A DNA stretch of 64,000 bases from a virus (lineage: Duplodnaviria; Heunggongvirae; Uroviricota; Caudoviricetes): IMG/VR virus record IMGVR_UViG_3300002498_000057. One strand, written 5' to 3'. A program made the position numbers and the translations under genes. Positions 15,271 through 40,125 of this stretch are shown one piece after another; the stretch's first letter is position 1, and the number at the start of each line of letters is the position of its first letter. Below the pieces are notes generated by a model that was not told where the DNA came from, ran no database searches, and worked only from the letters and a program-made list of their open reading frames with translations.

Positions 15271-15627
15271 TATATTATAATTAAAAACAATATAATCTTC
15301 TTTAACTATTTATATTATATTACTACTTACTAAATTTATTACCAGTACTTGAAAATATTTTTGCTTTTTCATTTTTACTCCATATATATTATTATAAACA
15401 TATTAAAAGGAATAAATCATTATGAAATATTACAAAATTTCTTAGGTCATGCAATTAACTAATTTATCTTATTATCATCTTAAAAAATGAGCTGACTAGG
15501 GACTAATATAGTAGAGTCGGCTACCCTCGGGGTATAGAGTCTATTCTTAGTAGCAGATTCAAAAAATATTTTAGTTTATAGGTGACAATAATAAAAACAT
15601 TAAGCATTGGACATTAACTAAGTAATT

Positions 15628-16986
15628 TTGAATACTATAAAACTTCCTTATATTATTGATACAAAAGAAGATATAGATTATATCATATGTCTTAGAAAGC
15701 AACAATCTAATGTCATTAGATTTTCTTATAATAGATTTAAAGATAAATTATCTTAGAAATAGATAAGATTGTTAATTAAAGATTTAAATAATATAAATAA
15801 CTTAGATAGTTGGTTTATACAATCTGCTATTAAGAAAGCATAGTATCTATATAAATCTAATCCAGATAAGAAAGTAATCTTCGGTGGTAAATCTAATTAT
15901 CTCAAGAGATTACAAAGTAAAATTACAAAAGAATAGTATAAGTAGAAAAGAATTTAGCCATTGTATGTTGTGGGATAGTCTCCAAAGAATGGTAATAGAA
16001 AGTTTAACTTAGATATTGACAATAACTGTCTAGTATTTAAACCGTATGTAAGAAGAAAAATTAAATTACAATTACCAAAATTACATAAAAATATTAAAAA
16101 ACAATTATTGTTTTTACAACAACAAGCAAAAGATAAACTTCTTGCTTATCAAATAGCTATTGATGCTGAGTTTATTTACATTTCTTTTGAATATGAAAAA
16201 CATACTATTGAATTAAATAAGAGTATTTACATGGGAATCGATTTGAATCCCCAATTTATTGGGTATTCAATAATCAAGGGTAGTAAAGTAATATATTCTA
16301 AAACTTATGATATTGGATAGATAATTACTAGAGTAAAATAGACTAAAGAATAGTCTTCATCCAAAACTAATAAATATTTAAATAATAAATTTAACCATGA
16401 AACTATTTAGATTTCTAAAGACATAATAAACAATTGTTTAAAATACAAAGTATCTAATATATTTATGTAGTCCTTAGATTTTACTAAATCATTTAAGTTT
16501 AAATACAAAGGTTTAAATAGATTGTGTCAAAACCTTTGAAAAAGAAATAAGTTTACAAGCAATATTCAAAAAAGATGCAATTCCTATGGCGTCAAGTTAT
16601 CATTTATCAATGGTGCATATAGCTCTACTATAGGAAATATAAAGTATAATTTATTCGATCCATGCAATTCAGCTATTTAGATAGCAAGACGTGGATACGA
16701 GTGTTATACTAAAAGACAAAAGAAATTTTATCCAAATTTAGTAGTTAAAAAAGAATTTAAAGATCAATGGAAGAAATATTTAAATTCTAAGACTATTGAG
16801 TTAGATAGCGTTTCAAATGAAGATTTATTTAAAAATACCTGGAAAGATCTTCATAATTACCTAAAAAATTCTAAAGTGAAATATAGAGTTTCTTTAAGTG
16901 AGTGTGACTTATTTAAAGTTTTTAGATTAAAGAATAAAAGAAGTATGGTAAAATTATATAGTTTTACTTAGTCTTTTATACTTTAA
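15628..16986 (+). CDS. tnpB: IS200/IS605-family TnpB (RuvC-like, zinc finger), recoded; probable TTG start
   Basis: RuvC-I MGIDLN, RuvC-II IFMESLD and RuvC-III FDPCNSAIEIARRGY; TGA inside NLWKRNK; many TAG; left-end hairpin at 15500-15540. Confidence 0.7.
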
Positions 16987-17099
16987 GTATTTTAGAACAA
17001 CTTCTGAAGAAAAAGCTATTAAAATAGCAAATGATAAACGAGTCCAAATAATATCAAATAATAATTGGGTAAATGGATACGAAGAAAATATCCAGTCTT

Positions 17100-17136
17100 A
17101 AAAATAATTGTGATAAATCTAGAGACTTAGATATAA
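17100..17136 (+). promoter_or_regulatory. conserved promoter motif copy 4 (inside TnpB right-end/omega-RNA region)
   Basis: TTGTGA 17107-17112, 18-nt spacer, TATAAT 17131-17136. Confidence 0.5.
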
Positions 17137-17277
17137 TAAAAAATATAAGTAAGAGCCAATAAGGTTATAGATGTGAATTTAAAAAGAGTTATTTTTATAG
17201 TAAAAAGCCCAAAACTTTGTATTGATATGCTAATCCAAGTAGACTTGGTTAATATGTAATATTTCTAACTCTTTTTA

Positions 17278-17314
17278 AAAATAATTGTGATAAATCTAGA
17301 AAGCTAGATATAAT
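17278..17314 (+). promoter_or_regulatory. conserved promoter motif copy 5, driving tRNA(CUA)
   Basis: TTGTGA 17285-17290, 18-nt spacer, TATAAT 17309-17314; tRNA 5' end 12 nt downstream. Confidence 0.6.
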
Positions 17315-17325
17315 AAAAAATATAT

Positions 17326-17397
17326 GGAGTTATCGTTTAATGGCTAGGACCGCAGATTCTAAACCTGCAGATCGGGGTTCGATCCCCCGTAACTCTA
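17326..17397 (+). tRNA. amber-decoding tRNA(CUA) with Glu/Gln-type body (probable tRNA-Glu(CUA))
   Basis: Acceptor GGAGTTA/TAACTCT, D-stem GTTT/GGAC (U11-A24, U13-G22), anticodon loop TTCTAAA (CUA), 4-nt variable loop AGAT with A46, T-loop TTCGATC, CCA encoded. Confidence 0.85.
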
Positions 17398-17605
17398 CCA
17401 GATTCATAACCTATTTTTATGTGGGTTGGGTAGCTAAGGAGTATTAAAGAGGTAATATTACTTTAATAAAAACCACTTAAGGGATAATTAATATTTTTAG
17501 TGTAGCAGGTCAATTTCTAAAAATATTGAGTTATTCAAAATCTCCTAAATGAATCTTTTATTTACCTCAGGTATCACAATGGTTAGTGAGTCTGAGCTTA
17601 TTTAT

Positions 17606-17677
17606 GGGCAGGTCATATAGTGGTTAGTATGCGACTCTTATACGGTTGTCACGGTGGTTCAATTCCACCTCTGCCTA
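17606..17677 (+). tRNA. tRNA-Ile(UAU)
   Basis: Acceptor GGGCAGG/TCTGCCT, anticodon stem CGACT/GGTTG with GU pairs, loop CTTATAC, T-loop TTCAATT, CCA encoded. Confidence 0.7.
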
Positions 17678-17867
17678 CCAATTTTAAAAATATTTTCATA
17701 AACATGAACCTTTAATTTATTTATATATAATAAGGAGTTCAAATTTATGGAAGAATTAATATGCAAATACTGTAATAAGTTGTTAAAAACAAAAGATTAT
17801 ATGCACAACATGAAATAAGATGTACATGCAATTCAAATAAAATTGATTGTATGAATCATTATATTAA

Positions 17868-17941
17868 GCCCAAGTAACTCAGTTGGTAGTAGTGATTGTG
17901 TTACATGCAATAAGTCATAGGTTCGAATCCTATTTTGGGCA
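17868..17941 (+). tRNA. tRNA-Val(UAC)-like with poorly paired D-stem
   Basis: Acceptor GCCCAAG/TTTGGGC, anticodon stem ATTGT/GCAAT, loop GTTACAT, T-arm ATAGG-TTCGAAT-CCTAT, CCA encoded; D-stem ACTC/GTAG does not pair. Confidence 0.5.
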
Positions 17942-17949
17942 CCAGTATT

Positions 17950-18112
17950 TAAAAATAATAGTTACTACGTATTAGGGACAACTAATCCTAATCAAATTAG
18001 ATCCCTATATCAAGAGTATTTAGCTAATATTTACTTGATACTACTGTCGTCAGAGACGTTAAGACTGATTAATCGGGTGTAGTAACTATTATTTTTTAAT
18101 AAGTGTATAGAG
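17950..18112 (+). ncRNA. long perfect hairpin RNA candidate sharing the AATAATAG motif of the Y-RNA-like units
   Basis: AAAAATAATAGTTACTAC ... GTAGTAACTATTATTTTTT 18-bp inverted repeat enclosing ~110 nt with three internal hairpins. Confidence 0.3.
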
Positions 18113-18127
18113 TGATAAACATGTTGA

Positions 18128-18484
18128 GGGGATGAAATGGATTCGACATAGTGAATAGGATAGAGAAACGAGTAGAGAATGATTGTGATACTCTCAAAAC
18201 TCAATTAAAGTTAAAATAGTTAACGACAACTTACTACAAGCTGCTTAATTGCAGACTATCATAACTGAGGTTCTCTGATTTGTAGATTATGATAGTAAGA
18301 CCATAATCAGACTTATCCAATAAGATAGTCTTAGTAATTGGATATAGTATACAAGGCATTACATAATTTAGGTTTGCACAATTGTCCTTCTTATGTGATT
18401 ATTAAACAATTATGCTATACTCGTAAGTGATTTCTTGAAAGTAAGCATTATGGACCCGAGTATCGAAACTCGGCATCTCCACCA
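18128..18484 (+). ncRNA. ssrA: tmRNA (SsrA)
   Basis: 5' GGGGATGAAATGGATTCGAC and tRNA-like 3' end GGACCCGAG-TATCGAAA-CTCGG-CATCTCC-A-CCA; internal tag frame (V)NDNLLQAA-TAA. Confidence 0.8.
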
Positions 18485-18519
18485 TTTTCAATAAATTGAA
18501 TTATAGGTTTCTTTATTTA

Positions 18520-18610
18520 CCTGTTTTAAATGAAGTGGTGAATAACTGTGCTTAATTGCACTAATTACCCAAGTTTTTGCTATTTTCACTTTGAGTAAAG
18601 TAGTACTTTT
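18520..18610 (+). repeat. ~95-nt repeat family R1, copy a (candidate small RNA preceding tRNAs)
   Basis: About 80% identical to 18906-19000; contains GTGCTTAATTGCAC and CTTTGAGTAAAG hairpins. Confidence 0.35.
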
Positions 18611-18611
18611 A

Positions 18612-18689
18612 GGGCTATATCTTGGGATACTATTTAGTAAACCTACAACTGGAACTAAATGGCTTAGAGTTCGATTCTCTAATAGTCCT
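18612..18689 (+). tRNA. tRNA-like element with canonical acceptor and T-arm, anticodon unresolved
   Basis: GGGCTAT/ATAGTCC acceptor, TAGAG-TTCGATT-CTCTA T-arm, CCA encoded; no clean D or anticodon stem found. Confidence 0.3.
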
Positions 18690-18708
18690 CCAGAATTTAA
18701 TAGTTAAT

Positions 18709-18779
18709 AGACTTTTAGTGAAATGGTATCACGAAGGAATTTGGATCCTTAGTTATAGGTTCGAATCCTATATGGTCTG
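18709..18779 (+). tRNA. tRNA-Gln(UUG)
   Basis: D-stem GTGA/TCAC, anticodon stem AAGGA/TCCTT, loop ATTTGGA, 4-nt variable loop, discriminator G, CCA encoded. Confidence 0.8.
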
Positions 18780-18822
18780 CCAATATATAAAACCAATAAG
18801 TATATAGGGTGTAAATTTTTAT

Positions 18823-18894
18823 AGAGCATTCGTTTATCGGAAAAGATACTCGGCTGTCGCCCGAGAGAGAGGGGTTCAACTCCCCTATGTTCTG
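18823..18894 (+). tRNA. tRNA-Asp(GUC)
   Basis: Acceptor AGAGCAT/ATGTTCT, anticodon stem CTCGG/CCGAG, loop CTGTCGC, T-arm AGGGG-TTCAACT-CCCCT, discriminator G, no CCA. Confidence 0.75.
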
Positions 18895-18905
18895 AAGTTA
18901 AAAAC

Positions 18906-19000
18906 AGTTCTTATTTACTGTCTTAAATAAGTGGTGGATAACTGGGCTTAATTGCACCAATTTCTCAGGTCTTTGGTATTTTCGCTTTGAGTAAAGTACC
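18906..19000 (+). repeat. repeat family R1, copy b
   Basis: Paralog of 18520-18610. Confidence 0.35.
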
Positions 19001-19008
19001 ATTTTAAT

Positions 19009-19081
19009 GTCACAGTAACTCGGGTCGGAAGAGTGTTCGTTTGAAGGGCGAAAGGCAGGATATCGAAATTCCTCAGTGGCA
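19009..19081 (+). tRNA. tRNA-Phe(GAA)
   Basis: D-stem ACTC/GAGT, anticodon stem TTCGT/GCGAA, loop TTGAAGG, discriminator A, CCA encoded; T-loop ATCGAAA atypical. Confidence 0.7.
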
Positions 19082-19104
19082 CCATACTTTGTATGTTTTA
19101 AACA

Positions 19105-19197
19105 CTATAATTAATCTTTGGTGGAGAGTTGATCACTCTTAGATATTTCGTTAATATCATGGAAATGTAGTAGTTCGAATCTACATTATAGTATTTA
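19105..19197 (+). repeat. ~93-nt repeat family R2, copy a (tRNA-like/structured RNA candidate)
   Basis: About 93% identical to 23628-23722; hairpins AGAGT-TGATC-ACTCT and ATGTAG-TAGTTCGAAT-CTACAT (T-arm-like). Confidence 0.35.
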
Positions 19198-19205
19198 AGT
19201 TTTAT

Positions 19206-19279
19206 ATTCCTATAGCTCAGTTGAATAGAGCAAATGCCTTCTAAGCATTAGGTCGTTGGTTTGAGTCCAACTAGGAATG
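19206..19279 (+). tRNA. tRNA-Arg(UCU)
   Basis: Acceptor ATTCCTA/TAGGAAT, D-arm GCTC-AGTTGAATA-GAGC, anticodon loop CTTCTAA, CCA encoded. Confidence 0.85.
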
Positions 19280-19313
19280 CCAAAATTGAATAAATAGTGT
19301 GTAAAATTTTTTA

Positions 19314-19387
19314 GTACACTTAGCCAAGTGGTCAACGGCGGATGGCTGCAACCCATCTATTCACAGGTTCAAATCCTGTAGTGTACT
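19314..19387 (+). tRNA. tRNA-Cys(GCA), class I
   Basis: Acceptor GTACACT/AGTGTAC, anticodon stem GATGG/CCATC, loop CTGCAAC, discriminator U, CCA encoded. Confidence 0.8.
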
Positions 19388-19408
19388 CCAATTATTTTCA
19401 TATTTTTA

Positions 19409-19446
19409 AAAATAATTGTGATAATTTCTAAAGTTGTGGATATAAT
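19409..19446 (+). promoter_or_regulatory. conserved promoter motif copy 6
   Basis: TTGTGA 19416-19421, 19-nt spacer, TATAAT 19441-19446. Confidence 0.6.
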
Positions 19447-19481
19447 AATATTAGATTAAGAAAATATAAGAGGTTGCAAAA

Positions 19482-19751
19482 ATGGGAAGATACGAATGTT
19501 GTAATTCATATGGCTGTTCTGCAGGATATTGTCAAGGTGTGGCTAGAATTAAAACTAAATATACCTTATCACAAGCATTAGAATGTATGCGAGATAATAT
19601 TACAATGATTAATAGCGCATACGATAATGAATATATTATTACAAAGATTTTGGATAAAGATGTTCTTGTCGACGTTACAGATTCTGATAATTATATTTAT
19701 GAAACTGAACTAGATTTACTTGAGCTTGAAGCTGTTTGGTATGTTAAATAA
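19482..19751 (+). CDS. hypothetical Cys-rich protein
   Basis: ORF with SD AGAGGT, TAA stop. Confidence 0.5.
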   Translation: MGRYECCNSYGCSAGYCQGVARIKTKYTLSQALECMRDNITMINSAYDNEYIITKILDKDVLVDVTDSDNYIYETELDLLELEAVWYVK

Positions 19752-19762
19752 AAATATTTTAA

Positions 19763-19897
19763 CGTGGTGTAGATAATAGTTACTTCGTTCGTTAAACGAC
19801 TGGTTGGTGGTTCAAGTCCATCCATGATGACATTAACATCATGTAGCTCAATTGGCAGAGCAGTACAGAACTATTGTTGCTTGTTCCCGTTATTTTT
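19763..19897 (+). ncRNA. Y-RNA-like unit A (YrlA-like: terminal stem + permuted tRNA-like module)
   Basis: 5' GATAATAGTTAC pairs with 3' GAACTATTGTTGC. Internal T-arm GGTGG-TTCAAGT-CCATCC, closed acceptor-like hairpin CATGATG-ACATTAA-CATCATG and D-arm GCTC-AATTGGCA-GAGC. U-rich 3' tail. Confidence 0.55.
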
Positions 19898-19906
19898 AAA
19901 TTTTTT

Positions 19907-20006
19907 AGTGTAGCGCAGATAATAGATACTTCGGATTAATAGGTTCAACTCCTATATTAGCTTCGGCTATGATATAAATCTATTGTCGTTTATTCTCACT
20001 AATTTT
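19907..20006 (+). ncRNA. Y-RNA-like unit B (YrlB-like, shorter)
   Basis: 5' GATAATAGAT pairs with 3' ATCTATTGTC; internal T-arm ATAGG-TTCAACT-CCTAT and TAGC-UUCG-GCTA hairpin; 3' tail GTTTATTCTCACTAATTTT. Confidence 0.5.
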
Positions 20007-20030
20007 AAAAGTATAATATAAATAATAATT

Positions 20031-20174
20031 TAGTGTAGTGTAAATAATAGCTACTTCGATAATAACCCGTTGGTCAGTGGTTCGAATCCATTCGTGAGGT
20101 AATTCTCTCGTAGCTCAGCTGGTAGAGCAATGGGCACAGATAAAACTATTATTAATTGTTCTCACTAATTTTAA
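20031..20174 (+). ncRNA. Y-RNA-like unit C (YrlA-like)
   Basis: 5' AAATAATAGCTAC pairs with 3' ACTATTATT; internal T-arm CAGTGG-TTCGAAT-CCATTCG and D-arm GCTC-AGCTGGTA-GAGC; same 3' tail motif as unit B. Confidence 0.55.
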
Positions 20175-20180
20175 ATTTTA

Positions 20181-20260
20181 ATGTATGGTGTAAATTAAAG
20201 ATACTTCGTTTAATTGAAACAAACATCATGAATCTTTAGTTGATTGTCCCTACATTTTTT
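20181..20260 (+). ncRNA. Y-RNA-like unit D (short)
   Basis: Shares the 5' motif ATGGTGTAAATTAAAGATACTTCG and the 3' motif GATTGTCCCTACATTTTTT. Confidence 0.4.
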
Positions 20261-20262
20261 AA

Positions 20263-20336
20263 TACATGGTGAAGATTAGAGCTACTTCGTGGTAGACAAA
20301 AGACTCTTATCGTTTATTCCTGTATTATTTTGTTTT
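20263..20336 (+). ncRNA. Y-RNA-like unit E (short)
   Basis: 5' ACATGGTGAAGATTAGAGCTACTTCG; 3' TATCGTTTATTCCTGTATTATTTT. Confidence 0.4.
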
Positions 20337-20342
20337 AGTTAT

Positions 20343-20411
20343 ATGCATGGTGAAAAATAAAGTTACTTCGCTGAATAGAAATACAACTTTATTTGCTTAT
20401 TCCTGCATTTT
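20343..20411 (+). ncRNA. Y-RNA-like unit F (short)
   Basis: 5' ATGCATGGTGAAAAATAAAGTTACTTCG; 3' TTTGCTTATTCCTGCATTTTTT. Confidence 0.4.
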
Positions 20412-20434
20412 TTAATAATACTGTTGGAGAAATA

Positions 20435-20929: not shown

Positions 20930-20962
20930 AAAAATTACTACTAATCTTAAAAGGAGATTGCT

Positions 20963-22330
20963 ATGTCGAAAGTTAATGTAAAGGTTGCTTATCCAAATCC
21001 TAAAACACATGGAGATGGTATTGCGTCAAAACTTACTAAGTTAGAAGAACTTCGTAGAAGTGTATTATCTAATATGCTTTGGGAAAATGAATTTTATGAA
21101 GACGGCGAAAGTATTGCAACTAGAATAACCAATTTAGCGAATACTGTTGATCCTAACAAGGTAGCTGATTTGGCTATTGAAGCAAGAGAACAAATGAAGT
21201 TAAGACATGTACCATTATTGTTATGTCGTATTCTTGCAAAAAGAGGTTATAAGGTAGCAAATACTTTAGCTAGAGTTATTCAAAGACCAGATGAACTTAC
21301 TGAATTTTTAGCTATTTATTGGAAAAATGGCAAAGAACCTTTATCAGCTCAAGTTAAGAAAGGACTAGCGTTAGCATTTACAAAATTTGATGAATATCAA
21401 TTAGCTAAATATAATAGAGATGAAAATATTAAATTAAAAGATGTATTATTTTTATCCCATGCAAAACCCCTTACTGATGACCAAGCAAATGTCTGGAAAA
21501 GATTAATTGATGGTACCATAGAAACTCCAGACACCTGGGAAGTAGCATTATCAACTGGTAAGGATAAGAAAGAAACTTTTGAAAGACTTATTACTTCAAA
21601 AAAATTAGGCGCATTAGCGTTAATACGTAACTTAAGAAAGATGGAAGAATCAAAAGTTGACAATAATATTATAAAACAAGCATTACTAGATATGAAAGTT
21701 GATAGAGTATTACCATTTAGATTCATTGCGGCAGCAAAACATGCTCCAAGATTTGAGCAGGATCTTGAACAAGCAATGTTTAAGTGTCTTAGTAATGGTA
21801 CTAAGTTACCTGGTAAAACTATTTTAATAATAGATATTTCTGGTAGTATGCATGGTCAATTATCATCTAAATCTGAAATGAGTAGATATGATGCTGCTAA
21901 TTCATTAGCTATTCTAGTAAGGGAAATGTGTGAAAATCCCGTAATATATGCTACAGCTGGAAATGACGGTAGAAGAATTCATGCAACAGCTTTAGTTCCA
22001 AACAGACGTGGATTTGCATTGCCAGACGCTATTATGAACATGAATAGTACTCTTGGTGGTGGTGGAATATTCTTAAAGCAAGTAATGGATTATGTATATG
22101 ATAAAGAGCATGATGCAGATAGAATTATAATTATTACAGATGAACAAGATTGTGATAATAGTAACGTAAATGCACCTGCAAATGCTAATGCCTTTGGGAA
22201 ACAAAATTATATTATAAATATTGCTTCATATAATAGAGGTATAGCATATAATAAAAAATGGATCCATATTAGTGGATGGTCAGAAGCGGTATTAAATTAT
22301 ATAGCACAATATGAGTTAATGGGTAATTAA
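20963..22330 (+). CDS. rsr: Ro60 ortholog (TROVE domain + C-terminal vWA/MIDAS), Rsr-like
   Basis: N-terminal LTKLEELRRSVLSNMLWENEFYEDG (TROVE); C-terminal ILIIDISGSMHG MIDAS motif; SD AAGGAG; no TAG/TGA. Confidence 0.8.
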   Translation: MSKVNVKVAYPNPKTHGDGIASKLTKLEELRRSVLSNMLWENEFYEDGESIATRITNLANTVDPNKVADLAIEAREQMKLRHVPLLLCRILAKRGYKVANTLARVIQRPDELTEFLAIYWKNGKEPLSAQVKKGLALAFTKFDEYQLAKYNRDENIKLKDVLFLSHAKPLTDDQANVWKRLIDGTIETPDTWEVALSTGKDKKETFERLITSKKLGALALIRNLRKMEESKVDNNIIKQALLDMKVDRVLPFRFIAAAKHAPRFEQDLEQAMFKCLSNGTKLPGKTILIIDISGSMHGQLSSKSEMSRYDAANSLAILVREMCENPVIYATAGNDGRRIHATALVPNRRGFALPDAIMNMNSTLGGGGIFLKQVMDYVYDKEHDADRIIIITDEQDCDNSNVNAPANANAFGKQNYIINIASYNRGIAYNKKWIHISGWSEAVLNYIAQYELMGN

Positions 22331-22331
22331 A

Positions 22332-22867: not shown

Positions 22868-22874
22868 AGTTTAA

Positions 22875-23435: not shown

Positions 23436-23511
23436 GCCCAGATATGCAAGCAGGAAAAGCAGATACACTTAGGATGTATTGATTTTGCAGGTTCGACTCC
23501 TGTTCTGGGTA
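23436..23511 (+). tRNA. class-I tRNA with Leu-type anticodon UAG
   Basis: Acceptor GCCCAGA/TCTGGGT, anticodon stem ATACA/TGTAT, loop CTTAGGA, short variable region, T-arm GCAGG-TTCGACT-CCTGT, discriminator A, CCA encoded. Confidence 0.7.
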
Positions 23512-23543
23512 CCATTATTTAAGATACGGATAATAGTTATAAT

Positions 23544-23616: not shown

Positions 23617-23627
23617 ATGTTTTTAAA

Positions 23628-23722
23628 ATATTATAGTTGATCTTTGGTGGAGAGTTGATCACTCTTAGATATTTCGTTAATATCGTGGAAATGTAGTAGT
23701 TTGAATCTATACTATAGTATTT
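23628..23722 (+). repeat. repeat family R2, copy b
   Basis: Paralog of 19105-19197. Confidence 0.35.
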
Positions 23723-23739
23723 TAAATTTTATAATAAGT

Positions 23740-23905
23740 ATATAAAAGTGTTTTGCAGTTTTGAGCATACGGTAAAGAAAGAGATAGGGAATAGTTCGTG
23801 GAATAGTATTGAGGGTTATCAATACTATGAACACCACGATCTCCACGTGGATTCAGTATATGAGATAGACCTATTCGCTTCATAATAAAACTGCAAATAC
23901 TTTTA
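23740..23905 (+). ncRNA. structured RNA candidate closed by a long-range stem
   Basis: 5' GTGTTTTGCAGTTTTGAG pairs with 3' AAAACTGCAAATAC; internal hairpins ATAGTATTG-AGGGTTAT-CAATACTAT and CCACG-ATCTC-CACGTGG. Confidence 0.3.
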
Positions 23906-24170
23906 TAAATAATCATAAGTATATAGTTGTGTTTTAAAATAATAAAGATGTTGTCTCATTCCACTTTAGTGTGGAATCTTGCTACCAAGACAGCGTATTA
24001 AGGGATGCATCTTATATGTATATGTCGAATGCTTTGGCACCATCACTACATATTGGTACGCTTGAGGAATGTATCGTTACTAGGTTGGAGTAGCTCTCCA
24101 GGAAACCGAAATTCGACCTTAGCTTAGGCTAGTAGTAAAACAATATCTTTATTATTATTTATTTGTAAAT

Positions 24171-24245
24171 GCCACAGTAGTTCTAATTGCGTAGAACATT
24201 GGTGTGAAGTACCAAGTGTTACTGGTTCGAGTCCAGTCTGTGGCA
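24171..24245 (+). tRNA. tRNA-Phe(GAA), second copy
   Basis: Acceptor GCCACAG/CTGTGGC, D-stem GTTC/GAAC, anticodon stem TTGGT/ACCAA, loop GTGAAGT, T-loop TTCGAGT. Confidence 0.8.
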
Positions 24246-24268
24246 CAATATTTTATACAAATATTTAT

Positions 24269-24342
24269 ATTCACATAGCTCAGTTGAATAGAGCAAATGT
24301 CTTCTAAACATTAAGTCGTTGGTTTGAGTCCAACTGGGAATA
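24269..24342 (+). tRNA. tRNA-Arg(UCU), second copy
   Basis: About 90% identical to the 19206 copy; anticodon loop CTTCTAA, CCA encoded. Confidence 0.8.
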
Positions 24343-24358
24343 CCAATTTATGTTATAT

Positions 24359-25919: not shown

Positions 25920-25993
25920 AAGGGTGTCGGTTAATGGTTGACCAACAGTCTCCAAAACTGTATTTAATGCAGGTTCGACTCCTGTTCTGGGTA
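25920..25993 (+). tRNA. tRNA-Trp(CCA)-like, probable pseudogene/chimera (acceptor stem cannot pair)
   Basis: D-arm GGTT-AATGGTT-GACC, anticodon stem ACAGT/ACTGT, loop CTCCAAA. 3' 30 nt GCAGGTTCGACTCCTGTTCTGGGTACCA identical to the 3' end of the 23436 tRNA, but the 5' strand AAGGGTG is not complementary. Confidence 0.45.
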
Positions 25994-26035
25994 CCATTAT
26001 TTAAAATATGCAAAATTGTGCATAATAGCTATAGA

Positions 26036-27586: not shown

Positions 27587-27670
27587 ACCGTAGCACCAGA
27601 GATGGGGATCTGGGCGAGATTGTAGCTCTCGTGCTCTAGGGCTTAGTAGGTTCGAATCCTATCTGCGGTA
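27587..27670 (+). tRNA. tRNA-Tyr(GUA), second copy (class II)
   Basis: Acceptor ACCGTAG/CTGCGGT, D-stem CCAG/CTGG, anticodon stem CGAGA/TCTCG, loop TTGTAGC, 14-nt variable arm, CCA encoded. Confidence 0.75.
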
Positions 27671-27802
27671 CCAATACTTGTTGATGTTAGTCAGTTAACT
27701 AGATATGATATTATTTAAATAATATATAATTAAAAAACATAAAAATATTTTAATAAAAATTATTTTTCTCCATATATATTAATATATAATCAAGGAGAAA
27801 AA

Positions 27803-28405
27803 ATGAAAGCAAAAGAAGTATTACAAATATTAAGAATTACAAGACCGACATTAACAAAATATGTTAGATAGGGTTGAATTAAAGTTTAGTAGTTGCCAAG
27901 TAAAAGATACATATATAATGATGAATCTGTTTATAAATTAATGAATAACAATATAGATAGAAAAACTGTAATATACGGAAGAGTTTCAACTAAATCACAG
28001 AAAAAAGATTTATAGAATCAAATGTAGTTATTAAAGCAATATTGCTTTAATAATGGATACCAGATAAATGCGGTATATTCTGATATTGCATCTGGTATTG
28101 ACTTTTCAAATAGAGTATAGTTTTTTAATTTATTAGATTAGATTATTAGTGGTAAGATAAAAAAAGTTATAATTACATATAAAGATAGGTTAAGTAGAAT
28201 TGGATTTTCATTTTTTGAAAAATTTTTTAAAAAATATGATTGTAAGATATAGGTAATTTCTTAGTTAAATAATCATAAATTATAGAGTTAGTAGATATTT
28301 GAATAGATAATAAGTTTAATTCATTGTTTTTCAATGAAAATATATAGTAAAAGAAAATCTAATAATACTATTATAATAAGTACTAATAGTTAGGATATAA
28401 AATAA
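27803..28405 (+). CDS. tnpA: IS607-type serine recombinase TnpA (recoded)
   Basis: N-terminal MerR-like HTH MKAKEVLQILRITRPTLTKYVR; catalytic YGRVSTKSQKKDL; VIITYKDRLSRIGFSFFEKF; SD AAGGAG. Confidence 0.75.
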
Positions 28406-28459
28406 CTCTTGATTAAAACATAGATTATTCAATGTAAATTTAATTTTTAGATAGATAAT

Positions 28460-29623
28460 ATGTTATTTATATCTAAGAATTTATACAATTATGCTAATTA
28501 TATAATTAGGCAGTAGTTTATAAATAATAGAAAATGAATAAGATATAATTAGTTATACCGTCTAGTTAAATAGAACTAGAATTATAAAATATTACCAGCT
28601 CAGACTAGCCAACAAGTTTTAAAGTTATTAGATAAAAATTGAAAATCATTTTTTACTGCTATTAAATTATGAAGTAAAAATAAATCAAGCTTTACTGGTA
28701 AACCAAGTCTACCAAAATATAAGAAAAAAGATGGAAAAAATATTTTAATATATCCTTTTCAAAATATTTCTATAGACAAAGAAACAAATTAGATTAAAAT
28801 ACCAAAAACAAAGTATAAAATTAAAATATCTAATAGGTTGTTATCTTAGACTATTAAATTTAAATAGTTAAGAATAATACCAACAAATGTTGGATTTAAA
28901 TGTTAGATAATATATAATGATAATCAAGATTTTCAAAAACAAGAAGATAATAATAGATATTGTAGTATAGATTTAGGATTAAGTAACTTTTCTACATTAG
29001 TAAATAATTTCGGAACATTACCACCAATAATTATAAATGGAAAAACAATTAAATCCTTTAATCGATATTATAATAAAAAGTTATCTAAATTACAGTCTAA
29101 ACTTTCATAGGAAAATAAATTTGTGTCAAAAAGAACACAGAGGTTAACTCAAAAAAGAGGTAATAAAATTAAAGATTCACTTCATAAAATTTCAAAATAC
29201 ATTCAAAATTATTGTGTAGATTTAGATGTATCAAGAGTAATAATGGGATACAATAAACAATGAAAAACAGATATTAATCTTGGTAAAAAGATAAATCAAA
29301 AATTTGTACAAGTTCCATATAATACTTTTTTAAATATGTTAAAGTATAAATTATATGATATTGGAATAATTTTAGAAATTACAGAAGAATCTTATACAAG
29401 TAAATGTTCTTTCTTAGATAAAGAAAAAATATGTAAACATACGTAGTATCAAGGAAGTAGAATTAAACGCGGTATATTTAAAACAAAATAGAACAAATAT
29501 ATAAATGCTGATGTTAATGGTAGTTATAACATCATAAGAAAAGTAATCGGTGATGATATTTATAATAATATCCAATCGATATAGGGATTGGTGTTAAACC
29601 CAGTTAGACTAAATATAGTTTAA
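28460..29623 (+). CDS. tnpB: IS607-type TnpB (recoded)
   Basis: LPAQTSQQVLKLLDKNWKSFF (W=TGA), SIDLGLSNFSTL (RuvC-I), IMGYNKQWKTDINLGKKINQKFVQVPY (W=TGA), EESYTSKCSF, INADVNGSYNIIRK. Confidence 0.75.
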
Positions 29624-29704
29624 TAAAGATTTTTAATAATGTTTAATAATATTAATAAAAATCATAACATTATAGAAAATTAAAAAGAATAAAATAAAAA
29701 TCAT

Positions 29705-29779
29705 GCCCGTGTAACTCAGTCTGGCTAGAGTATCTGCCCTTTAAGCAGAGAGTCATTGGTTCAAGTCCAATTACGGGTA
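29705..29779 (+). tRNA. tRNA-Lys(UUU) with C33
   Basis: Acceptor GCCCGTG/TACGGGT, D-arm ACTC-AGTCTGGCTA-GAGT, anticodon stem TCTGC/GCAGA, loop CCTTTAA, CCA encoded. Confidence 0.7.
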
Positions 29780-29793
29780 CCAGTTATATAATA

Positions 29794-32950: not shown

Positions 32951-32959
32951 GGTTGTAAG

Positions 32960-33154: not shown

Positions 33155-33169
33155 ATTGAGGATTAGTAC

Positions 33170-35198: not shown

Positions 35199-35494
35199 TG
35201 CTTAGAATAACAGTATAGTTAGTACCAAGGGGAATATTTAAACCAATTAAGATTGGTGAATTATACATAAGAAATAATTTAACAGGAACATTAAAATCTG
35301 GAAATTATAGTTATGTCCTGCGTGGTAAAAAGAACAGTAGTAATGTATGGAAGTTGATATATTTAATTCTTAAAGATAAATATTGTAAGTAAAATATAAA
35401 TAGAGGATTTGCCTAGTAGGTTAAGGCGCTCGTTTAAATATTTTTATAACTTTTTATAATTTCTTGATATTTATACATATAAGGAAATATTAAT

Positions 35495-36310
35495 ATGTAT
35501 AAATGTAAAAAATGTAATTAGTAGTTTAATTCTATACCCGGCCTATCAAATCATGTAAGATGGCATCATAAAGAGATTATAATATATTAGTGCTAGTTGT
35601 GTAATAGAAAGTTTATAGGTAGTGCTGCATTTATTATTCATAAGAGAGTCTGCGAGAGTCGGACTGTAAAAAATAAATATCCGTAGTTTTGTGATTTATG
35701 TGGTCATAAAATTTCACAAGCTGTATATGCGAGACACCATAAATATTGTAATGGCCTTGGTCCAAGAAGATTAAGATAGAAAAAAAATTTATATGCACCC
35801 CATGGAAAAACATACATATAGATTTTTGGAGCATAGAAAGCTAAATAGATAATTAATAAAATATCTAAAACAGCAAAAAGTCATTATATAGCTGGAGTGT
35901 CGGGACATGCAAAAACTGAATAGAAATAGGCTATTAGATGTAAAAAAATAAGCGATTATATTCTTAATAGGTATTAGACGGGATGAATGCCCAAGGCCGG
36001 TAGATGTAAAAAAATAGATTATGAAAGTAATATTGCTGGTAATGTTAAGCTTGATGGAAGCTGGTAGTTAGCAGTTGCTAAATATTTTGATAAAAATAAT
36101 ATAAATTGGAGAAGAAATACAAAAAGGTTTAAGTATTATCATAATAATAAAACTAAACATTATACTCCAGATTTTTATCTGGTCGATACAGACTAGTATA
36201 TAGAAGTAAAGGGATATATTACTTAGTTGGATAAAATAAAATGATAGCAATTTATGTAGAAACTTTTAATTTGGGATAAATTAGTTTTAAAAAATTTAAA
36301 AATTATTTAA
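35495..36310 (+). CDS. C2H2 zinc-finger + PD-(D/E)xK endonuclease (recoded), intact paralog of the 13181 pseudogene
   Basis: CKKCN..H..WHH and CELCNRKF...HKRVC fingers; C-terminal LDGSWELAVAKYF...YTPDFYLVDTD.YIEVKGY. Confidence 0.6.
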
Positions 36311-36311
36311 T

Positions 36312-36398
36312 GGAAATGTGCCAGAGTCTGGTTTATTGGGAAGACCTGCTAAGTCTTTGGGTGTAACAGCTTCGTAAGTTCGAATCTTACCATTTCCG
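36312..36398 (+). tRNA. tRNA-Ser(GCU), class II
   Basis: Acceptor GGAAATG/CATTTCC, anticodon stem AAGAC/GTCTT, loop CTGCTAA, long variable arm, T-arm GTAAG-TTCGAAT-CTTAC, discriminator G. Confidence 0.85.
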
Positions 36399-36425
36399 CA
36401 AACATTTAAAGTATAAGAGGTATAA

Positions 36426-37040
36426 ATGGCAGACACATATCTAATTCAAAAACTAAGAAAGTAGACTGGTTATCCACTTGGGCAGTGTAAATAGGCATTA
36501 GAATATACTAATTATGTTTATGATACCGCTATAGAGTATTTAAAGTCTTTAACCTTAAATAAGAAATATGGACAACCAATACCAATAACTGAAACTTCTA
36601 CTGCTAATGGTATAATTTATTCATATATACACCACAATGAGAAAATTGGTGTTATGTTATAGATGAGATGTGACTCTGATTTTACCGCTAAAACAGAATA
36701 GTTTAAACAGTTATGTGAAGACATTGCATTACATATTGTCGTGACTAATCCAAAATATTTTAAACCAAGTTAGTATATAACTATACATGGTGAATAGCTA
36801 GATAAAGAACATGAGATTCTTTATCAAAAATTAAAGTTACAAAATAAACCAGAAAATATAATTCATACAATTATCAATAACATGCAATAGAAAAAAGTAA
36901 ATGATTTATGTTTAATGACACAAAAGTTCTTTAAAGATTAGAAAGTAACAATATCTGATATTTGTAGAGATTTGTCAAATAAGACAAATGAAAACATTTA
37001 TGTAGAAAAGTTTATAAGGTTTTAGTTGGGTAAATAGTAA
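36426..37040 (+). CDS. tsf: elongation factor Ts-like protein (recoded)
   Basis: N-terminal LIQKLRK.TGYPLGQCK.ALE (EF-Ts UBA-like motif [20 protein letters not shown]); IGVML.MRCDSDFTAK aligns to ILEVNCQTDFVAK; LHIVVTNPKYFKP aligns to MHVAASKPEFI. Confidence 0.5.
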
Positions 37041-38607
37041 TGAATGTTTATATTTTAACAATTGATGACGGATGGAATAGTAATGAGATGGTCGGTGTAT
37101 TTTAGTCGTAGAATTCAGCTGAACAATATATTATTTAGAATTATTTTGTATAGGATGATGATAGTGATATGCCTAATGACAATGGTAAAATTTCAATTTA
37201 GTCATATAGTATAATTGAATATGAGGTTATAAAGTAATGAGTAAATGACATAAAGTAAAAGACAATGATTTACCAGTATAGAAAGATTATAATAAGACAT
37301 TCTTTTGTTATATTAGAGGTTCGTGTAATGATGTACGCAGAACGGAAAACCATTATGGCATAGTAAAGTATGGGAAATGGAGAAAGTACCATGACTATAA
37401 AGATAGATTAGGTTTCTATGATACACATTATGACAGAAGCATGGGTAATTTTGCACAGCCTGTAGATGTAATTGCTTGATATGAATATCCATAGGACTAT
37501 CCAAATGATGAACAAGAAAGTCCAAAATATTTTGCATAGTACGATAAAGAATAGAAAGAATAGTTTGAGAACTGGAAAAAAGATAATCCAGAAGAATATT
37601 AGAAATATATGGAGTAGGATGATGAATATTAAGTAGCTAATGAATTTAATTTGTAAATAGTGTGATATAGAGATAATATAGTTATTTCATTCTGATTAGG
37701 TTGGTCGTATGTGTGTAATAGATTAGAATTATTATATTTTAAGTAGAATGTTAATAACTATTACATAGAAATTTTACATATGCAGAATTGTCGATGTAAC
37801 CGGCGGAGTATATGAAGAGTTTAAAATTGCAATATATGTTGATCCATAGATATTTATAAATAGAGTTAGGGAAAGATTTAATGAAAAACAAAACTATAAC
37901 AAAAGATACTATAACACTTAGTAGTAAACCAATTACATTAACATTAATAGGAACATTTAGACCTTGTAGTATTGACGGGTATGTTGGATTTATATTTAAT
38001 AATAGTAAACAATAGACTATTATTAGATTTTAGGATATAGATAGTATTGTTGAATGTGATGATAAAATATTAACTAAATAATATATTTTATGAATTGTAA
38101 AAAATGTATTCGGCGCAAAATAAAATGAAATAAACGATACTGAAATAAGATAACTCGTAAAATATCAATACAAAGTGGGTCTGCATATAAAAAGATATTT
38201 GCTAAATATTGATAGTAGACTTGTATAGAATGACATAGTAAAAAGAAAAAACGTATAAATTTTAATTAGGAAATATAATGTAGATTAATGACATATAGAA
38301 ATACTTAGAATTACCATACTTACATAGAAATAGAGATTCTAATGAATTTCCAGATTTGACATTTATTGATACACAATATCAATCTTGAGATAGTTCAGAT
38401 TGTTCTAAATTGTCTCTATTAAAGATTCTTTTGATTCAATAGATACTTAAAGAAAGACAATAGAGAAACAATAAACAAGGTTGGTATTTTGGTGAATATG
38501 AAGAAGCTTTAAAAGTTTTAATTGATCTTAATATTGACGGCAGGTATAAAAACCTTTAGCAATATGATAATTATGATGGATATGAATTAATATAAGGAAG
38601 AGGCAAA

Positions 38608-39087
38608 ATGCAAATAATTACACCATAGCATAAAAGAATTTCAATATAGCAAATGATAAATGAATTAAAACTATATATGTCTACTAGACCTAATACTAAA
38701 ATTATAGTTGGTGCTGATTCGCAAAAAGTTAAAAGTAGATTTTGTATAGCTGTTGCAGTTGCTGCTGTGGACCCAGGGAACGGTGGAATATTTTATATTA
38801 AAAAAGACTATATGACTCCTGAAAGATAGTTAAAAAATATAAAAAGTGTAATTAGTTGAAAGGTTTGAACATAGGCAATGTAGATTTGTAATATGATGAA
38901 AACTTTAATATAGAATGGTATTGAAATGGATGAAAAAATTACACACCACGATATATCTAAAGCTGGATTATCGAGAGACCATATTGATTCTATTACTGGA
39001 TTTATGAAGTCACAGGGATTTTGTCCATAGATTAAACCTAATGCGGTAATAGCTTCTTGTATTGCAAATTCATTTAGTAAAAAATAA
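38608..39087 (+). CDS. YkuK/DUF458-like RNase H-fold protein (recoded)
   Basis: KIIVGADSQKVKSRFCIAVAVAAVDPGNGG resembles the DUF458 IGTDSQ...T.F core; several TAG; stop inside the promoter motif. Confidence 0.4.
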
Positions 39088-39118
39088 TTGTGATAATTCA
39101 AACTAATTAAGATATAAT
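39081..39118 (+). promoter_or_regulatory. conserved promoter motif copy 9
   Basis: TTGTGA 39088-39093, 19-nt spacer, TATAAT 39113-39118. Confidence 0.6.
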
Positions 39119-39149
39119 AAATTTAATTAAGTTTTAAAGAGGTTACAAA

Positions 39150-39413
39150 ATGACTAGTAAACAAAAAGAAAAAAAGTTAATTCTACTTAAAGAAGTTTTA
39201 GCTGCTAATGGTTTTGAAGAAGATAATTATGGTAATTTTAAAAAAACAGTTAAAGATAATTTATACAGATATAAATTTAATAAAACTTCTTTAAGGTATG
39301 AAAGTCAAGTAATACATTCTGACGGTAGTAAATGTTGGGTAAGACTTAGATCTGGATATTATAAAGATCTTACTGTCAATGAATTAGGAAAAATAGTGGG
39401 GCTAACAGTATAA
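39150..39413 (+). CDS. hypothetical protein
   Basis: ORF with SD AGAGGT. Confidence 0.45.
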   Translation: MTSKQKEKKLILLKEVLAANGFEEDNYGNFKKTVKDNLYRYKFNKTSLRYESQVIHSDGSKCWVRLRSGYYKDLTVNELGKIVGLTV

Positions 39414-39652
39414 TGAAAGATAAAATTATAGTTATATTAGTTTTAATATATCGAATAGTATCCGAATTAGTAATTCTTATAGGATCTATTTTATTGGGTA
39501 TTGATGTTATACAATCAATCCTATCAATATATTTACCAACTACATGGTACCTATATATGTTTGTATTTATGATACTGTATTATACCTTACATAGTGTTAA
39601 TTATAGTATAGTATATAGGTTGTGGTTGAATTCAGATTTAAAGGAAGATTAA
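39413..39652 (+). CDS. hypothetical small membrane protein
   Basis: Overlapping ATG/TAA junction; hydrophobic. Confidence 0.35.
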   Translation: MKDKIIVILVLIYRIVSELVILIGSILLGIDVIQSILSIYLPTTWYLYMFVFMILYYTLHSVNYSIVYRLWLNSDLKED

Positions 39653-39837
39653 CATGCCAAAAAATAAAAGTGATATTAAAAAGAGTTTAGATGATTTACA
39701 AACAATTATTAAACTTGAAAAAGATATAGATAGAAAAAATTTAATAATCAATAAAATAATTACATTTTGTGATACTAATATTGATAATGATATTTGTGTT
39801 AAAATTTTAAATATTATCAAATCCTAAGATATATATA

Positions 39838-40125
39838 CTAAAAGACAAAAGAAATTTTATCCAAATTTAGTAGTTAAAAAAGAATTTAAAGATCAATGGA
39901 AGAAATATTTAAATTCTAAGACTACTAAGTTAGATAATGTTTCAAATGAAGACACTTTCAAAAATACTTGAAGAGATCTTCATAATTACCTAAAAAATTC
40001 TAAAGTGAAATATAGAGTTTCTTTAAGTGAATGTAATTTATTTAAAGTTTTTAGATTAAAGAATAAAAGAAGTATGGTAAATTTATATTGCTTTACCTAG
40101 TCTTTTATACTTTAAGTATTTTATA
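39838..40125 (+). mobile_element. orphan copy of the 3' end of the IS605-family tnpB (omega-RNA/right-end scaffold region)
   Basis: About 93% identical to 16705-16990 (last ~95 codons of tnpB plus right-end sequence); no upstream tnpB body. Confidence 0.6.

Follow-up and report, generated by a model that had tools for sequence, protein, structure and literature searches.

What becomes of a transposon that resides in a phage with a genetic code of its own, and can the RNA encoded at its right end persist where the nuclease gene is missing? Both questions are raised by a stretch of 64,000 nucleotides from a Caudoviricetes phage (IMG/VR record IMGVR_UViG_3300002498_000057), which was analysed as a whole and is called the window in the following. 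It carries a nuclease gene of the TnpB superfamily preceded by a truncated transposase gene (element 1, with its nuclease gene tnpB1), a second transposon with two complete genes (element 2) and a further copy of the right end of element 1 that lacks a nuclease gene, which we call the orphan. The best explanation, which we favour with moderate confidence, is that two long-resident transposons of the IS607 family are written in the phage's own code and that a third, 5'-truncated copy has kept only the RNA module. As regards the anatomy of the elements and their assignment to a family, there is very little doubt. The coordinates of all features are collected in Table 1.

The window is AT-rich (~25-27% GC), has all its genes on the + strand and shows weak DNA similarity to the Prevotella Lak megaphages. 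Open reading frames (ORFs) of at least 100 amino acids cover 18.7 kb of the + strand under the standard code versus 50.3 kb if TAA is the sole stop codon; many of the long ORFs contain dozens of in-frame TAG and several TGA codons, and others contain none. The meaning of both codons was checked by alignments in five protein families, namely the tnpB1 product, the TnpB and TnpA of element 2, DnaK and class II ribonucleotide reductase (RNR). The TAG codons at positions 43, 117, 261, 281 and 351 of tnpB1 align with Glu in 101-119 of 120 homologues, and its sole TGA aligns with Trp in all 120. For the TnpB of element 2, TAG falls on Glu columns in 112, 120 and 110 of 120 homologues and all four TGA codons fall on Trp columns, the TGA sites of the two TnpBs being Trp in 110-120 of 120 homologues. 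TAG also encodes the conserved glutamates of NAEG, FEV, IELS, GIET and QGER in DnaK, those of NPCGE and GIEP in RNR, and those of DLER and KIEV in the TnpA of element 2. The codon usage points in the same direction: GAA and GAG are depleted in TAG-rich genes (13 versus 74 TAG in the RNR gene and 10 versus 31 TAG in a helicase gene), CAA and CAG counts are ordinary there, and GAA makes up 5-8% of the codons in TAG-free genes. Since the alignments in five families and the codon usage agree, we are highly confident that the phage reads TAG as Glu and not as Gln; judged by the same comparisons, TGA is read as Trp in these very genes, which leaves TAA as the sole stop codon. The window encodes 28 tRNAs, with the anticodons CTA and TCA among them and with neither a tRNA-Glu nor a tRNA-Trp, and the tRNA(CTA) is needed for reading the TAG codons of all three transposon genes considered here (tnpB1 and the two genes of element 2).

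The transposon genes follow this code as closely as the genes of the phage itself. There are 14 in-frame TAG and one TGA in tnpB1, 14 TAG and one TGA in the tnpA of element 2, and 14 TAG and four TGA, with not a single TGG, in its tnpB. The share of TAG among the Glu-equivalent codons (GAA, GAG and TAG) is 52-78% in the transposon genes versus 45-85% in the resident recoded genes. The original prediction, made from the sequence of the window alone, had described many in-frame TAG codons and functionally placed TGA codons in both elements and had taken this as a sign of deep adaptation to the code of the phage, and our data bear out both statements. Like the recoded phages described so far (Lak, crAss-like, Agate and Jade phages; codes 15 and 4), the phage has its in-frame stop codons concentrated in a subset of genes, encodes suppressor tRNAs and also possesses genes compatible with the standard code. 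It differs from them in that TAG behaves as Glu and that both codons have acquired a new meaning within the same genes. For Lak phages, a reassignment of TAG to Gln has been reported, though not settled for every clade (PMC8346664); the only changes observed in phage recoding are those of TAG to Gln and of TGA to Trp (bioRxiv 10.1101/2021.08.26.457843), and the surveys found one reassignment per phage (bioRxiv 10.1101/2021.08.26.457843; PMC8346664). Neither study lists the combination of TAG = Glu with TGA = Trp among the phage reassignments. As a separate observation, the genes of the window fall into two classes, one TAG-free and readable in the standard code and the other with 45-85% of its Glu written as TAG.

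The protein encoded by tnpB1 is a distant member of its superfamily. It has no match in Pfam or PHROGs, its score of 22.4 bits against TIGR01766 lies below the cut-off of 32, and it does not reach the curated TnpB thresholds (Pfam OrfB_IS605, NCBIfam guided_TnpB); among its 215 homologues (~437 amino acids), PF27229 SSO2105_N is the only precomputed Pfam label. In the family alignment, D205, E281 and D344 are invariant and form part of the RuvC-like motifs GIDLNP, xxEDL and DPxxAS. As E281, the catalytic glutamate of RuvC-II, is encoded by TAG, the D-E-D triad that had been noted before is present only with TAG = Glu and would be lost under any other meaning of this codon. Structural evidence comes from an AlphaFold2 model of a homologue (P0001, 48% identical to the tnpB1 protein; predicted local distance difference test score 90), for which Foldseek found Cas12f (1e-10), TnpB (4e-8 to 8e-8), Fanzor2 (3e-6) and also Cas12k in the PDB. 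These matches, the TnpBs of ISFba1 and ISDra2 among them, all have a probability of 1.00, at TM-scores of only 0.3-0.5 and sequence identities of 10-16%. The zinc-finger/TNB segment is absent, as only ~8 residues lie between YSSTIGN and FDPCNSA, with neither a Cys/His cluster nor a match to Cas12f1-like_TNB, and a conserved domain of ~95 amino acids follows RuvC-III at the C-terminus.

We identified 211 loci of the tnpB1 family in IMG/VR, many of them on contigs of 100-500 kb, and 30 loci in 185,579 species genomes (one representative each), most of the latter on contigs of metagenome-assembled genomes. The few family members of Rhizobium and Acetobacter isolates are 22-28% identical. Thus, tnpB1 represents a TnpB lineage that is divergent and has hardly any members outside phages. 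Several phage contigs possess two or three copies of the family; between such paralogues, a sharply delimited region of 1.33-1.5 kb is 76-92% identical and extends from 0-115 nt upstream of the start codon to 10-40 nt past the stop codon. Three loci (L014, L034 and L084) have in-frame standard stop codons inside the nuclease ORF and possibly come from recoded phages. By analogy with characterized TnpBs, the tnpB1 product is predicted to cleave DNA in an RNA-guided manner that depends on a transposon-associated motif (TAM).

In at least 14 of 80 IMG/VR loci, an ORF of 198-201 amino acids with an N-terminal helix-turn-helix (HTH) and the serine-recombinase motif abuts or overlaps the start of the nuclease gene, and other loci have only N-terminal or C-terminal remnants of this TnpA. 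Because the relatives pair the nuclease with a serine-recombinase TnpA, tnpB1 belongs to the IS607 type and not to the IS605 type. The original prediction had called the gene an IS605-family tnpB; its placement in the TnpB superfamily is upheld by the triad and the Foldseek matches, and the IS605 part has to be given up in view of the recombinase of the relatives and the sub-threshold profile scores. An IS605-family gene of the Y1-transposase type in a phage that reads TAG as Gln is extremely unlikely. The weak similarity to TIGR01766, which is named 'IS200/IS605 family accessory protein TnpB-related', and the report of TAG as Gln in Lak phages (PMC8346664) would suit such a view, but the transposase beside the relatives is a serine recombinase and never Y1, TAG stands for Glu in five unrelated protein families with GAA and GAG depleted where TAG is frequent, and Gln at position 281 would remove the invariant catalytic Glu. 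A nuclease-dead protein of the TldR kind, with TAG as Gln and hence an E-to-Q exchange, was considered as well and rejected, since TAG replaces Glu genome-wide.

To delimit element 1, we compared it with a related full element that has been inserted independently three times (L009, L061 and L098). The three insertions have a left junction in common, TA followed by TTATAAATTGACAATAAT (TA followed by TTA(T/A)AAAT..ACAATAAT over all three), and the TA followed by TTATAATTAAAAACAATA at ~15273 resembles it. The right terminus GTATTTTA, which is common to two of the insertions (two were compared at the right end), is found in element 1 at 16987-16994. Just 5' of the truncated tnpA lies a leader that resembles the leader of element 2. 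The truncated tnpA itself matches Pfam MerR (7.6e-08) and, weakly, the N-terminus of IS607 transposases (NF033518, 5.9e-4; phrog_6620), is 37% identical over 51 amino acids to the HTH of the relatives' TnpA, stops where the catalytic domain would be due and ends three bases before the start of tnpB1. That this short ORF encodes an unrelated MerR regulator was rejected, as full IS607-type TnpAs and similar remnants occupy the same position in relatives. Remnants of tnpA were also observed at seven other loci (L010, L013, L016, L021, L025, L027 and L068), which indicates recurrent internal deletions in the family. They comprise either ~30 amino acids of the HTH just 5' of tnpB or only the last 35-40 amino acids of TnpA, and those of L010, L013, L016 and L025 resemble that of the window. 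Since such deletions recur in relatives, the arrangement in the window is one instance of a common path of decay.

From the TnpA of the relatives, the HTH remnant and the common junctions it follows that element 1 is, on sequence grounds, an IS607-like element of ~1.72 kb (~15.27-16.99 kb) with a truncated transposase, the left boundary being deduced by comparison. As its tnpA is reduced to the HTH domain, element 1 cannot move by itself. Neither the right-end terminus nor a 38-nt stretch common to element 1 and the orphan yielded anything in exact-match scans of IMG/VR and the JGI metagenomes, so no sister genome or empty site is at hand. Two copies of a promoter-like motif had been placed in the right-end region of element 1. 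These copies are real (17098-17147 and 17275-17324), but they lie outside the element, 104 and 281 nt beyond its right end at 16994, and the second one is located immediately upstream of the tRNA(CTA) gene.

Element 2 is apparently a conventional, intact IS607. It had been predicted as a complete IS607 (tnpA and tnpB, 27803-29623) located between two tRNA genes, and both the Resolvase and guided_TnpB matches and the flanking tRNA-Tyr and tRNA-Lys confirm this. Residues 1-46 of its TnpA weakly match HTH_17/MerR, and the best matches in the PDB are catalytic domains from TnpAs that belong to the IS607 family (ISC1926 TnpA, 2.5e-23), with the catalytic-Ser motif GRVST aligned. Its TnpB reaches 157.5 bits against NF040570 (cut-off 100) and 73 bits against OrfB_IS605 (cut-off 30.5; 2.7e-20), matches Cas12f1-like_TNB (1.1e-08) and is 50-58% identical to bacterial TnpBs. 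The closest relative (58% identical) is likewise located behind a Resolvase gene in an identical two-gene layout. TTG at 28406, directly after the tnpA stop codon, was taken as the start of tnpB because the N-terminus then matches the homologues. No second copy or empty site that would fix the ends of element 2 was found, nor did a joined-flank query reveal a phage with an uninterrupted tRNA-Tyr/tRNA-Lys cluster, the cluster that the element had been proposed to split. The region at the 3' end of its tnpB (29440-29700), a candidate for a structured reRNA, has a folding z-score of -3.7, and no Rfam family, RAGATH-18 included, matches the right end of this element.

At the right end of element 1, several lines of evidence indicate a structured RNA. 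The original prediction had taken this region for the RNA scaffold of TnpB and proposed to fold it; the module folds beyond shuffled sequence, with minimum free energy z-scores of -5.6 for element 1 and -5.1 for the orphan and the same architecture in both. Within tnpB1, structure is limited to the final ~450 nt (z -3.9 to -6.8 versus -0.9 to -2.2 elsewhere), and 30 relatives give a mean z of -4.1 in the last 250 nt versus -1.4 at the 5' end and -0.8 in the middle. A hairpin of 7 bp at ~16866-16889 was recovered without any model by plain MAFFT and RNAalifold; 5 of its 7 pairs change on both sides and only 2 of 252 cells are broken. The amino acids encoded by this hairpin co-vary in a way that keeps the stem (N-S...R-V, T-A...R-R, M-S...R-H). 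Moreover, a covariance model of 135 nt and four helices, built from the two copies of the window alone, hits 75 family loci at their 3' end and on the coding strand, with E-values down to 3e-9. The core at 16860-16994 is matched by the family models R1 and R2. In the model alignment, 91.6% of the cells are paired versus 64% in shuffles and 35-49% in slid controls, and double changes occur in 31 of the 34 modelled pairs. The family consensus also keeps a single-stranded UAAAAAA, GUUUUUAG and a terminal UAUUUUA. No Rfam family was found at the right end of element 1 or element 2, even at E-values up to 1.

The right-end element RNA (reRNA) of the IS607-family member ISXfa1 has a length of ~150 nt and three stem-loops; it shares sequence with the 3' end of tnpB and extends into the flank. 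This RNA guides IS607 TnpB, which takes the guide from the flanking sequence and cleaves sites that are empty (PMC10711439). The module of element 1 resembles it in its three stem-loops and its scaffold of ~135-150 nt. By this analogy, it is likely that the RNA module serves as the guide scaffold of the nuclease, in agreement with the scaffold role proposed for the right end, which is structured and conserved in the family. It had also been suggested that the DNA downstream of each right end might match a target. The flank of element 1 (18-nt query) has no second match in the window and that of the orphan has only a chance-level one, so that no meaningful match was obtained for either right end.

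The duplication of the tnpB1 3' end and right end without a tnpB body was correctly predicted. The repeat comprises 293 nt (16705-16997 versus 39834-40126; the last 282 nt of tnpB1 plus 11 nt) and is 93% identical, with 19 substitutions and zero indels over 290 nt. The shared terminus of 26 nt occurs exactly twice in the window versus zero occurrences expected by chance, and the family model finds exactly two copies there even with filters off. The orphan scores 108.7 bits against R2 over positions 1-135, and each of the 34 modelled pairs is canonical in it. Among the 19 differences from the first copy, 8 preserve pairing (one of them by a G-C to A-U compensation) and 5 are unpaired; in the 135-nt core, the 34 conserved pairs all survive the 7 substitutions (simulated P = 0.025-0.07). 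The first codon of the orphan is the one that follows ARRGYEC, and the TAA of an ORF of 57 amino acids precedes it; further upstream only noise was found and nothing like the left end of element 1 or of element 2. It lies within a + strand operon that starts at the promoter motif 39081-39126 and in which no terminator is predicted. The cognate tnpB1 is located 23 kb upstream and there is no tnpB body beside the orphan, which therefore has the layout of a stand-alone guide locus: a complete scaffold, no adjacent nuclease and a cognate nuclease elsewhere. That the orphan is functional in trans is a prediction which we regard as a real possibility, although it falls somewhat short of being probable.

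The orphan ends 19 nt before the ATG at 40143, so that its would-be guide covers the ribosome-binding site (RBS) of the next gene. Its position also marks the border at which a block without TAG (39150-39827) gives way to a TAG-rich one (40143 onward). This position could fit a domesticated phage gene tnpB1 whose 3' RNA acts in cis (on mRNA stability, processing or translational control), with the orphan as a regulatory RNA reused in front of the gene at 40143. The near restriction of the family to phages and the absence of the transposase from most copies would agree with this as well. Nevertheless, such a domestication is very unlikely, since phage genomes harbour several copies, whose sharp boundaries agree from site to site, an IS607 TnpA is part of the full elements, the catalytic triad shows no variation and GTATTTTA, the terminal motif, is conserved precisely where the homology stops.

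Right-end-only copies are not restricted to the window. A degenerate pattern on the first hairpin gave 28 sites in IMG/VR, 23 of which have at least 1.5 kb of upstream sequence and could be evaluated. Five of these 23 are 5'-truncated and have only the right end, the gene starting at residues ~269, ~332 (three cases) and ~387. All five match the whole RNA model (61-89 bits), and each keeps the complete 135-nt core, however much of the gene is lost. The mirror test with an N-terminal pattern gave 49 family hits, of which 34 are complete, 14 are cut by the end of the stored DNA and one is an interior 3'-truncated copy (1 of 35). The difference between 5/23 and 1/35 has a P of ~0.03 in a one-sided Fisher test (~0.07 if the duplicated unit described below is counted once). 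As 5'-truncated copies outnumber 3'-truncated ones, the right-end RNA modules seem to outlive or out-spread the rest of the element. This excess could reflect a function or a bias in the way copies are made.

The duplicated unit comprises 419 bp at two sites (L127 and L131) of the 57.7-kb IMG/VR contig 3300042332_001032. It combines the right end with the final ~330-375 nt of a tnpB of the family, its two copies are 98.3% identical with sharp edges, and the right end of L127 lies directly against an ATG. In appearance, the unit is an RNA module without a nuclease that has moved or been copied. This unit raises the question whether the orphan is itself a non-autonomous mini-element, internally deleted with functional ends, that would have reached 39.8 kb by homing or with the help of a TnpA in trans. 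The window does encode an intact IS607 TnpA; enzymes of this kind have little need of target specificity, and matching dinucleotides are their sites of recombination (PMC10711439). The orphan has TA at both its start and its end. However, TA is very common in a genome of 25% GC, the region upstream of 39834 has no resemblance to the left end of element 1 or of element 2, and there is a single such copy in the 64 kb of the window. We therefore consider a mini-element quite unlikely.

Several observations weigh against our favoured explanation of two resident transposons and an RNA-keeping third copy. With regard to the code, BLAST against annotated phage and E. coli tRNAs did not assign tRNA(CTA) to an isotype of origin, and an initial view of its D-arm as Glu-like was given up. 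With regard to the ends, a TAM consensus is not derivable, as the left flanks of the three independent insertions share only an A/T-rich (R)ATA, and no empty-site relative was found for element 1, element 2 or the orphan. The covariation figures lean to structure because they come from an alignment (A5) that had been fitted to the model, A-U pairs come at little cost in sequence of 20% GC, and part of the sequence conservation is protein-driven, since the RNA structure overlaps a conserved protein domain. In the orphan, 6 of the 19 differences disrupt the apical stems, the test for preserved pairing is only borderline, and dN/dS between the copies is uninformative (8 nonsynonymous and 6 synonymous changes). 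Finally, a mechanistic bias rather than selection could be the source of the excess of right-end-only remnants.

The observations on the orphan bear directly on the possibility that it is inert debris, i.e. that a second full copy of element 1 at ~39.8 kb lost its 5' 1.1 kb and left 290 nt that lack any RNA function and have not had the time to decay. The orphan lacks a left end and possesses neither a start codon nor its own promoter, its substitutions are near-neutral in the reading frame and partly disruptive in the apical pairing, and its guide has no target beyond its own flank, all of which would be expected of debris. Yet all family-conserved pairs are kept and indels are absent at 7% divergence, right-end-only remnants are far commoner than left-side ones in other phages, and a complete core is retained by each of them. 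Taken together, we consider debris a somewhat unlikely origin of the orphan.

If the favoured explanation of two resident transposons and a retained RNA module holds, the following course of events can be proposed. Because the catalytic Glu and 13 other codons of tnpB1 are TAG, synthesis of TnpB1 would be gated by tRNA(CTA), and full-length, active TnpB1 would appear only once this phage tRNA works. The last ~135-290 nt of element 1 would be transcribed as a conserved multi-hairpin RNA that ends at GTATTTTA and, by analogy with IS607, may act as a guide-RNA scaffold with its guide taken from the flanking DNA. The orphan is probably co-transcribed within its operon, and TnpB1 from element 1 might process and load the orphan RNA in trans, so that the orphan would act as a second guide specifying the junction at 40124. 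For its mobility, element 1 would depend on a TnpA in trans, possibly that of element 2, which has a similar leader. A further-reaching proposal is that this phage-restricted IS607 lineage spreads and competes by means of RNA modules separable from the nuclease gene, the orphans being guide-RNA genes with which one TnpB1 cuts rival phage genomes or empty alleles at extra junctions, and that the nuclease is switched on only after the code switch. We regard this proposal as doubtful.

Derivatives of OMEGA systems (short for obligate mobile element-guided activity) that keep the RNA and lack the nuclease are known, for example the palindrome-associated transposable elements (PATEs) of IS200/IS605 and the stand-alone omega RNA loci of IscB. 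Among the known systems, the IS607 family (IS607 of H. pylori, ISXfa1, ISC1926) is the closest: a TnpA with HTH and serine-recombinase domains is followed by tnpB on the same strand, and element 2 has the protein-level features that were tested. Terminal inverted repeats are absent from this family (PMC10711439). The difference lies in the code, as both elements of the window are written with TAG = Glu and TGA = Trp, and in element 1, whose nuclease is missed by the curated profiles, has the ~95-amino-acid C-terminal domain instead of a zinc finger/TNB and is essentially phage-only, and whose tnpA is truncated. With TnpB and omega RNA of IS200/IS605 (ISDra2), element 1 has in common that the scaffold of a RuvC nuclease lies across the 3' end of the nuclease gene and extends as far as the right end, with a guide role that is predicted here. 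Unlike in IS200/IS605, neither a Y1 transposase nor subterminal hairpin ends were seen, and the orphan consists of the right end only. Cas12f, Cas12k and Fanzor2 are the best structural matches of the family model (E-values of 1e-10 to 3e-6) and the size of ~430-450 amino acids is similar, but there is no CRISPR array near tnpB1 and the association is with transposons, not with a defence locus. TldRs are nuclease-dead, phage-encoded TnpB derivatives that act as RNA-guided repressors (PMC10705468). Like them, tnpB1 is phage-borne and TnpB-derived with a candidate guide RNA beside the gene, and the would-be guide of the orphan covers an RBS and a start codon. In contrast to them, the D-E-D triad is invariant in the tnpB1 family, and hence the tnpB1 protein is not nuclease-dead if TAG is Glu.

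The kinds of elements found here are therefore already known; new are the code, the phage-restricted nuclease lineage without a zinc finger together with its uncatalogued RNA, and the recurring RNA copies without a nuclease. The transposon genes serve as an internal control for the code of the phage, as TAG stands for their conserved catalytic and structural glutamates and TGA for their tryptophans, and together with DnaK and RNR they reveal a code of TAG = Glu plus TGA = Trp. They also illustrate that mobile elements can become locked into the private genetic code of their host: since the proteins cannot be made in a standard-code cell, horizontal escape is limited and nuclease activity would be tied to the code switch. 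Huge phages harbour the lineage of tnpB1 in abundance, curated profiles overlook it, and with its ~440 amino acids, the missing zinc finger and a covariation-supported RNA that is absent from Rfam it is a candidate for a compact RNA-guided nuclease. The recurring nuclease-less copies make trans-acting guide RNAs of TnpB directly testable.

Table 1. Position of the transposon features, the relevant tRNA genes and the two gene classes in the window
Feature	Position	Strand	Remarks
tRNA, anticodon TCA	14060-14134	+	needed to read TGA as Trp; ARAGORN; Rfam tRNA 43 bits
Element 1, left end and 5' leader	15273-15421	+	probable, by comparison; start approximate
Element 1, truncated tnpA	15422-15625	+	MerR-like HTH only; 67 amino acids; 7 TAG and 1 TGA
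Element 1, tnpB1	15628-16986	+	divergent TnpB-superfamily RuvC nuclease gene; 452 amino acids; TTG start; without zinc finger
Element 1, structured RNA module	16705-16994 (core 16860-16994)	+	overlaps the tnpB1 3' end; ends in GTATTTTA
Element 1, flank	16995-17014	+	would-be guide if the RNA works like IS607 reRNA, by analogy with ISXfa1 (PMC10711439)
tRNA, anticodon CTA	17326-17400	+	ARAGORN; Rfam tRNA 51.5 bits
tRNA-Tyr	27587-27673		flanks element 2
Element 2, maximal extent	27674-29704	+	bracketed by tRNAs; exact ends undefined
Element 2, IS607 tnpA	27803-28405	+	serine recombinase with N-terminal HTH; Pfam Resolvase 1.6e-18
Element 2, IS607 tnpB	28406-29623	+	405 amino acids; TTG start; NCBIfam guided_TnpB NF040570 5.9e-46
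tRNA-Lys	29705-29782		flanks element 2
Orphan RNA module and right end	39834-40123	+	no nuclease gene, start codon or recognisable left end
Orphan, flank	40124-40143	+	would-be guide; would cover RBS and ATG (40143) of the next gene
TAG-free genes	20963-22330, 42856-43881, 44085-45134, 46022-46819, 48005-48796, 60821-61891		TGA-free too, except 44085-45134 (one TGA)
TAG-rich genes	159-6660, 10398-12457, 40143-41691

Some other features of the window were noted in passing. The class II RNR is encoded at 3197-5752 and DnaK at 7072-8979, and the product of 10398-11468 is a probable DnaJ, judged by its J-domain and Cys-repeat motifs. Further genes encode a C2H2 zinc-finger protein (35495-36310), an EF-Ts homologue (36426-37040) and an RNaseH-like protein (38608-39087). 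The promoter-like motif, AAAATAATTGTGATAA-N13-TATAAT, is present in ~20 copies, all of them on the + strand and mostly just 5' of genes or tRNAs (6653, 9078, 9420, 13131, 17098, 17275, 19408, 22874, 29873, 39081, 41754, 47376, 48893, 59909, 60212, 60756 and 62756).

The tRNA region contains a full-length tmRNA gene at 18128-18484 on the + strand (Rfam RF00023, 94.7 bits, E 1.3e-35) and, amid the tRNA genes, a gene for a TROVE-domain (Ro60-like) protein at 20963-22330 (+) that lacks TAG and TGA (Pfam 7.9e-19). Segments of this region are duplicated with 84-92% identity (19096-19283 versus 23622-24346, 18533-18609 versus 18929-19005, and 23486-23537 versus 25968-26019) and include two tRNA-Arg(TCT), two tRNA-Cys and two pairs of tRNA-Leu. 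A partial tRNA is located at 25929-25985 (Rfam model positions 10-63). Outside this region, a direct repeat of 175 nt (51636-51810 versus 52735-52909) is 90% identical, its two copies lying 1.1 kb apart.

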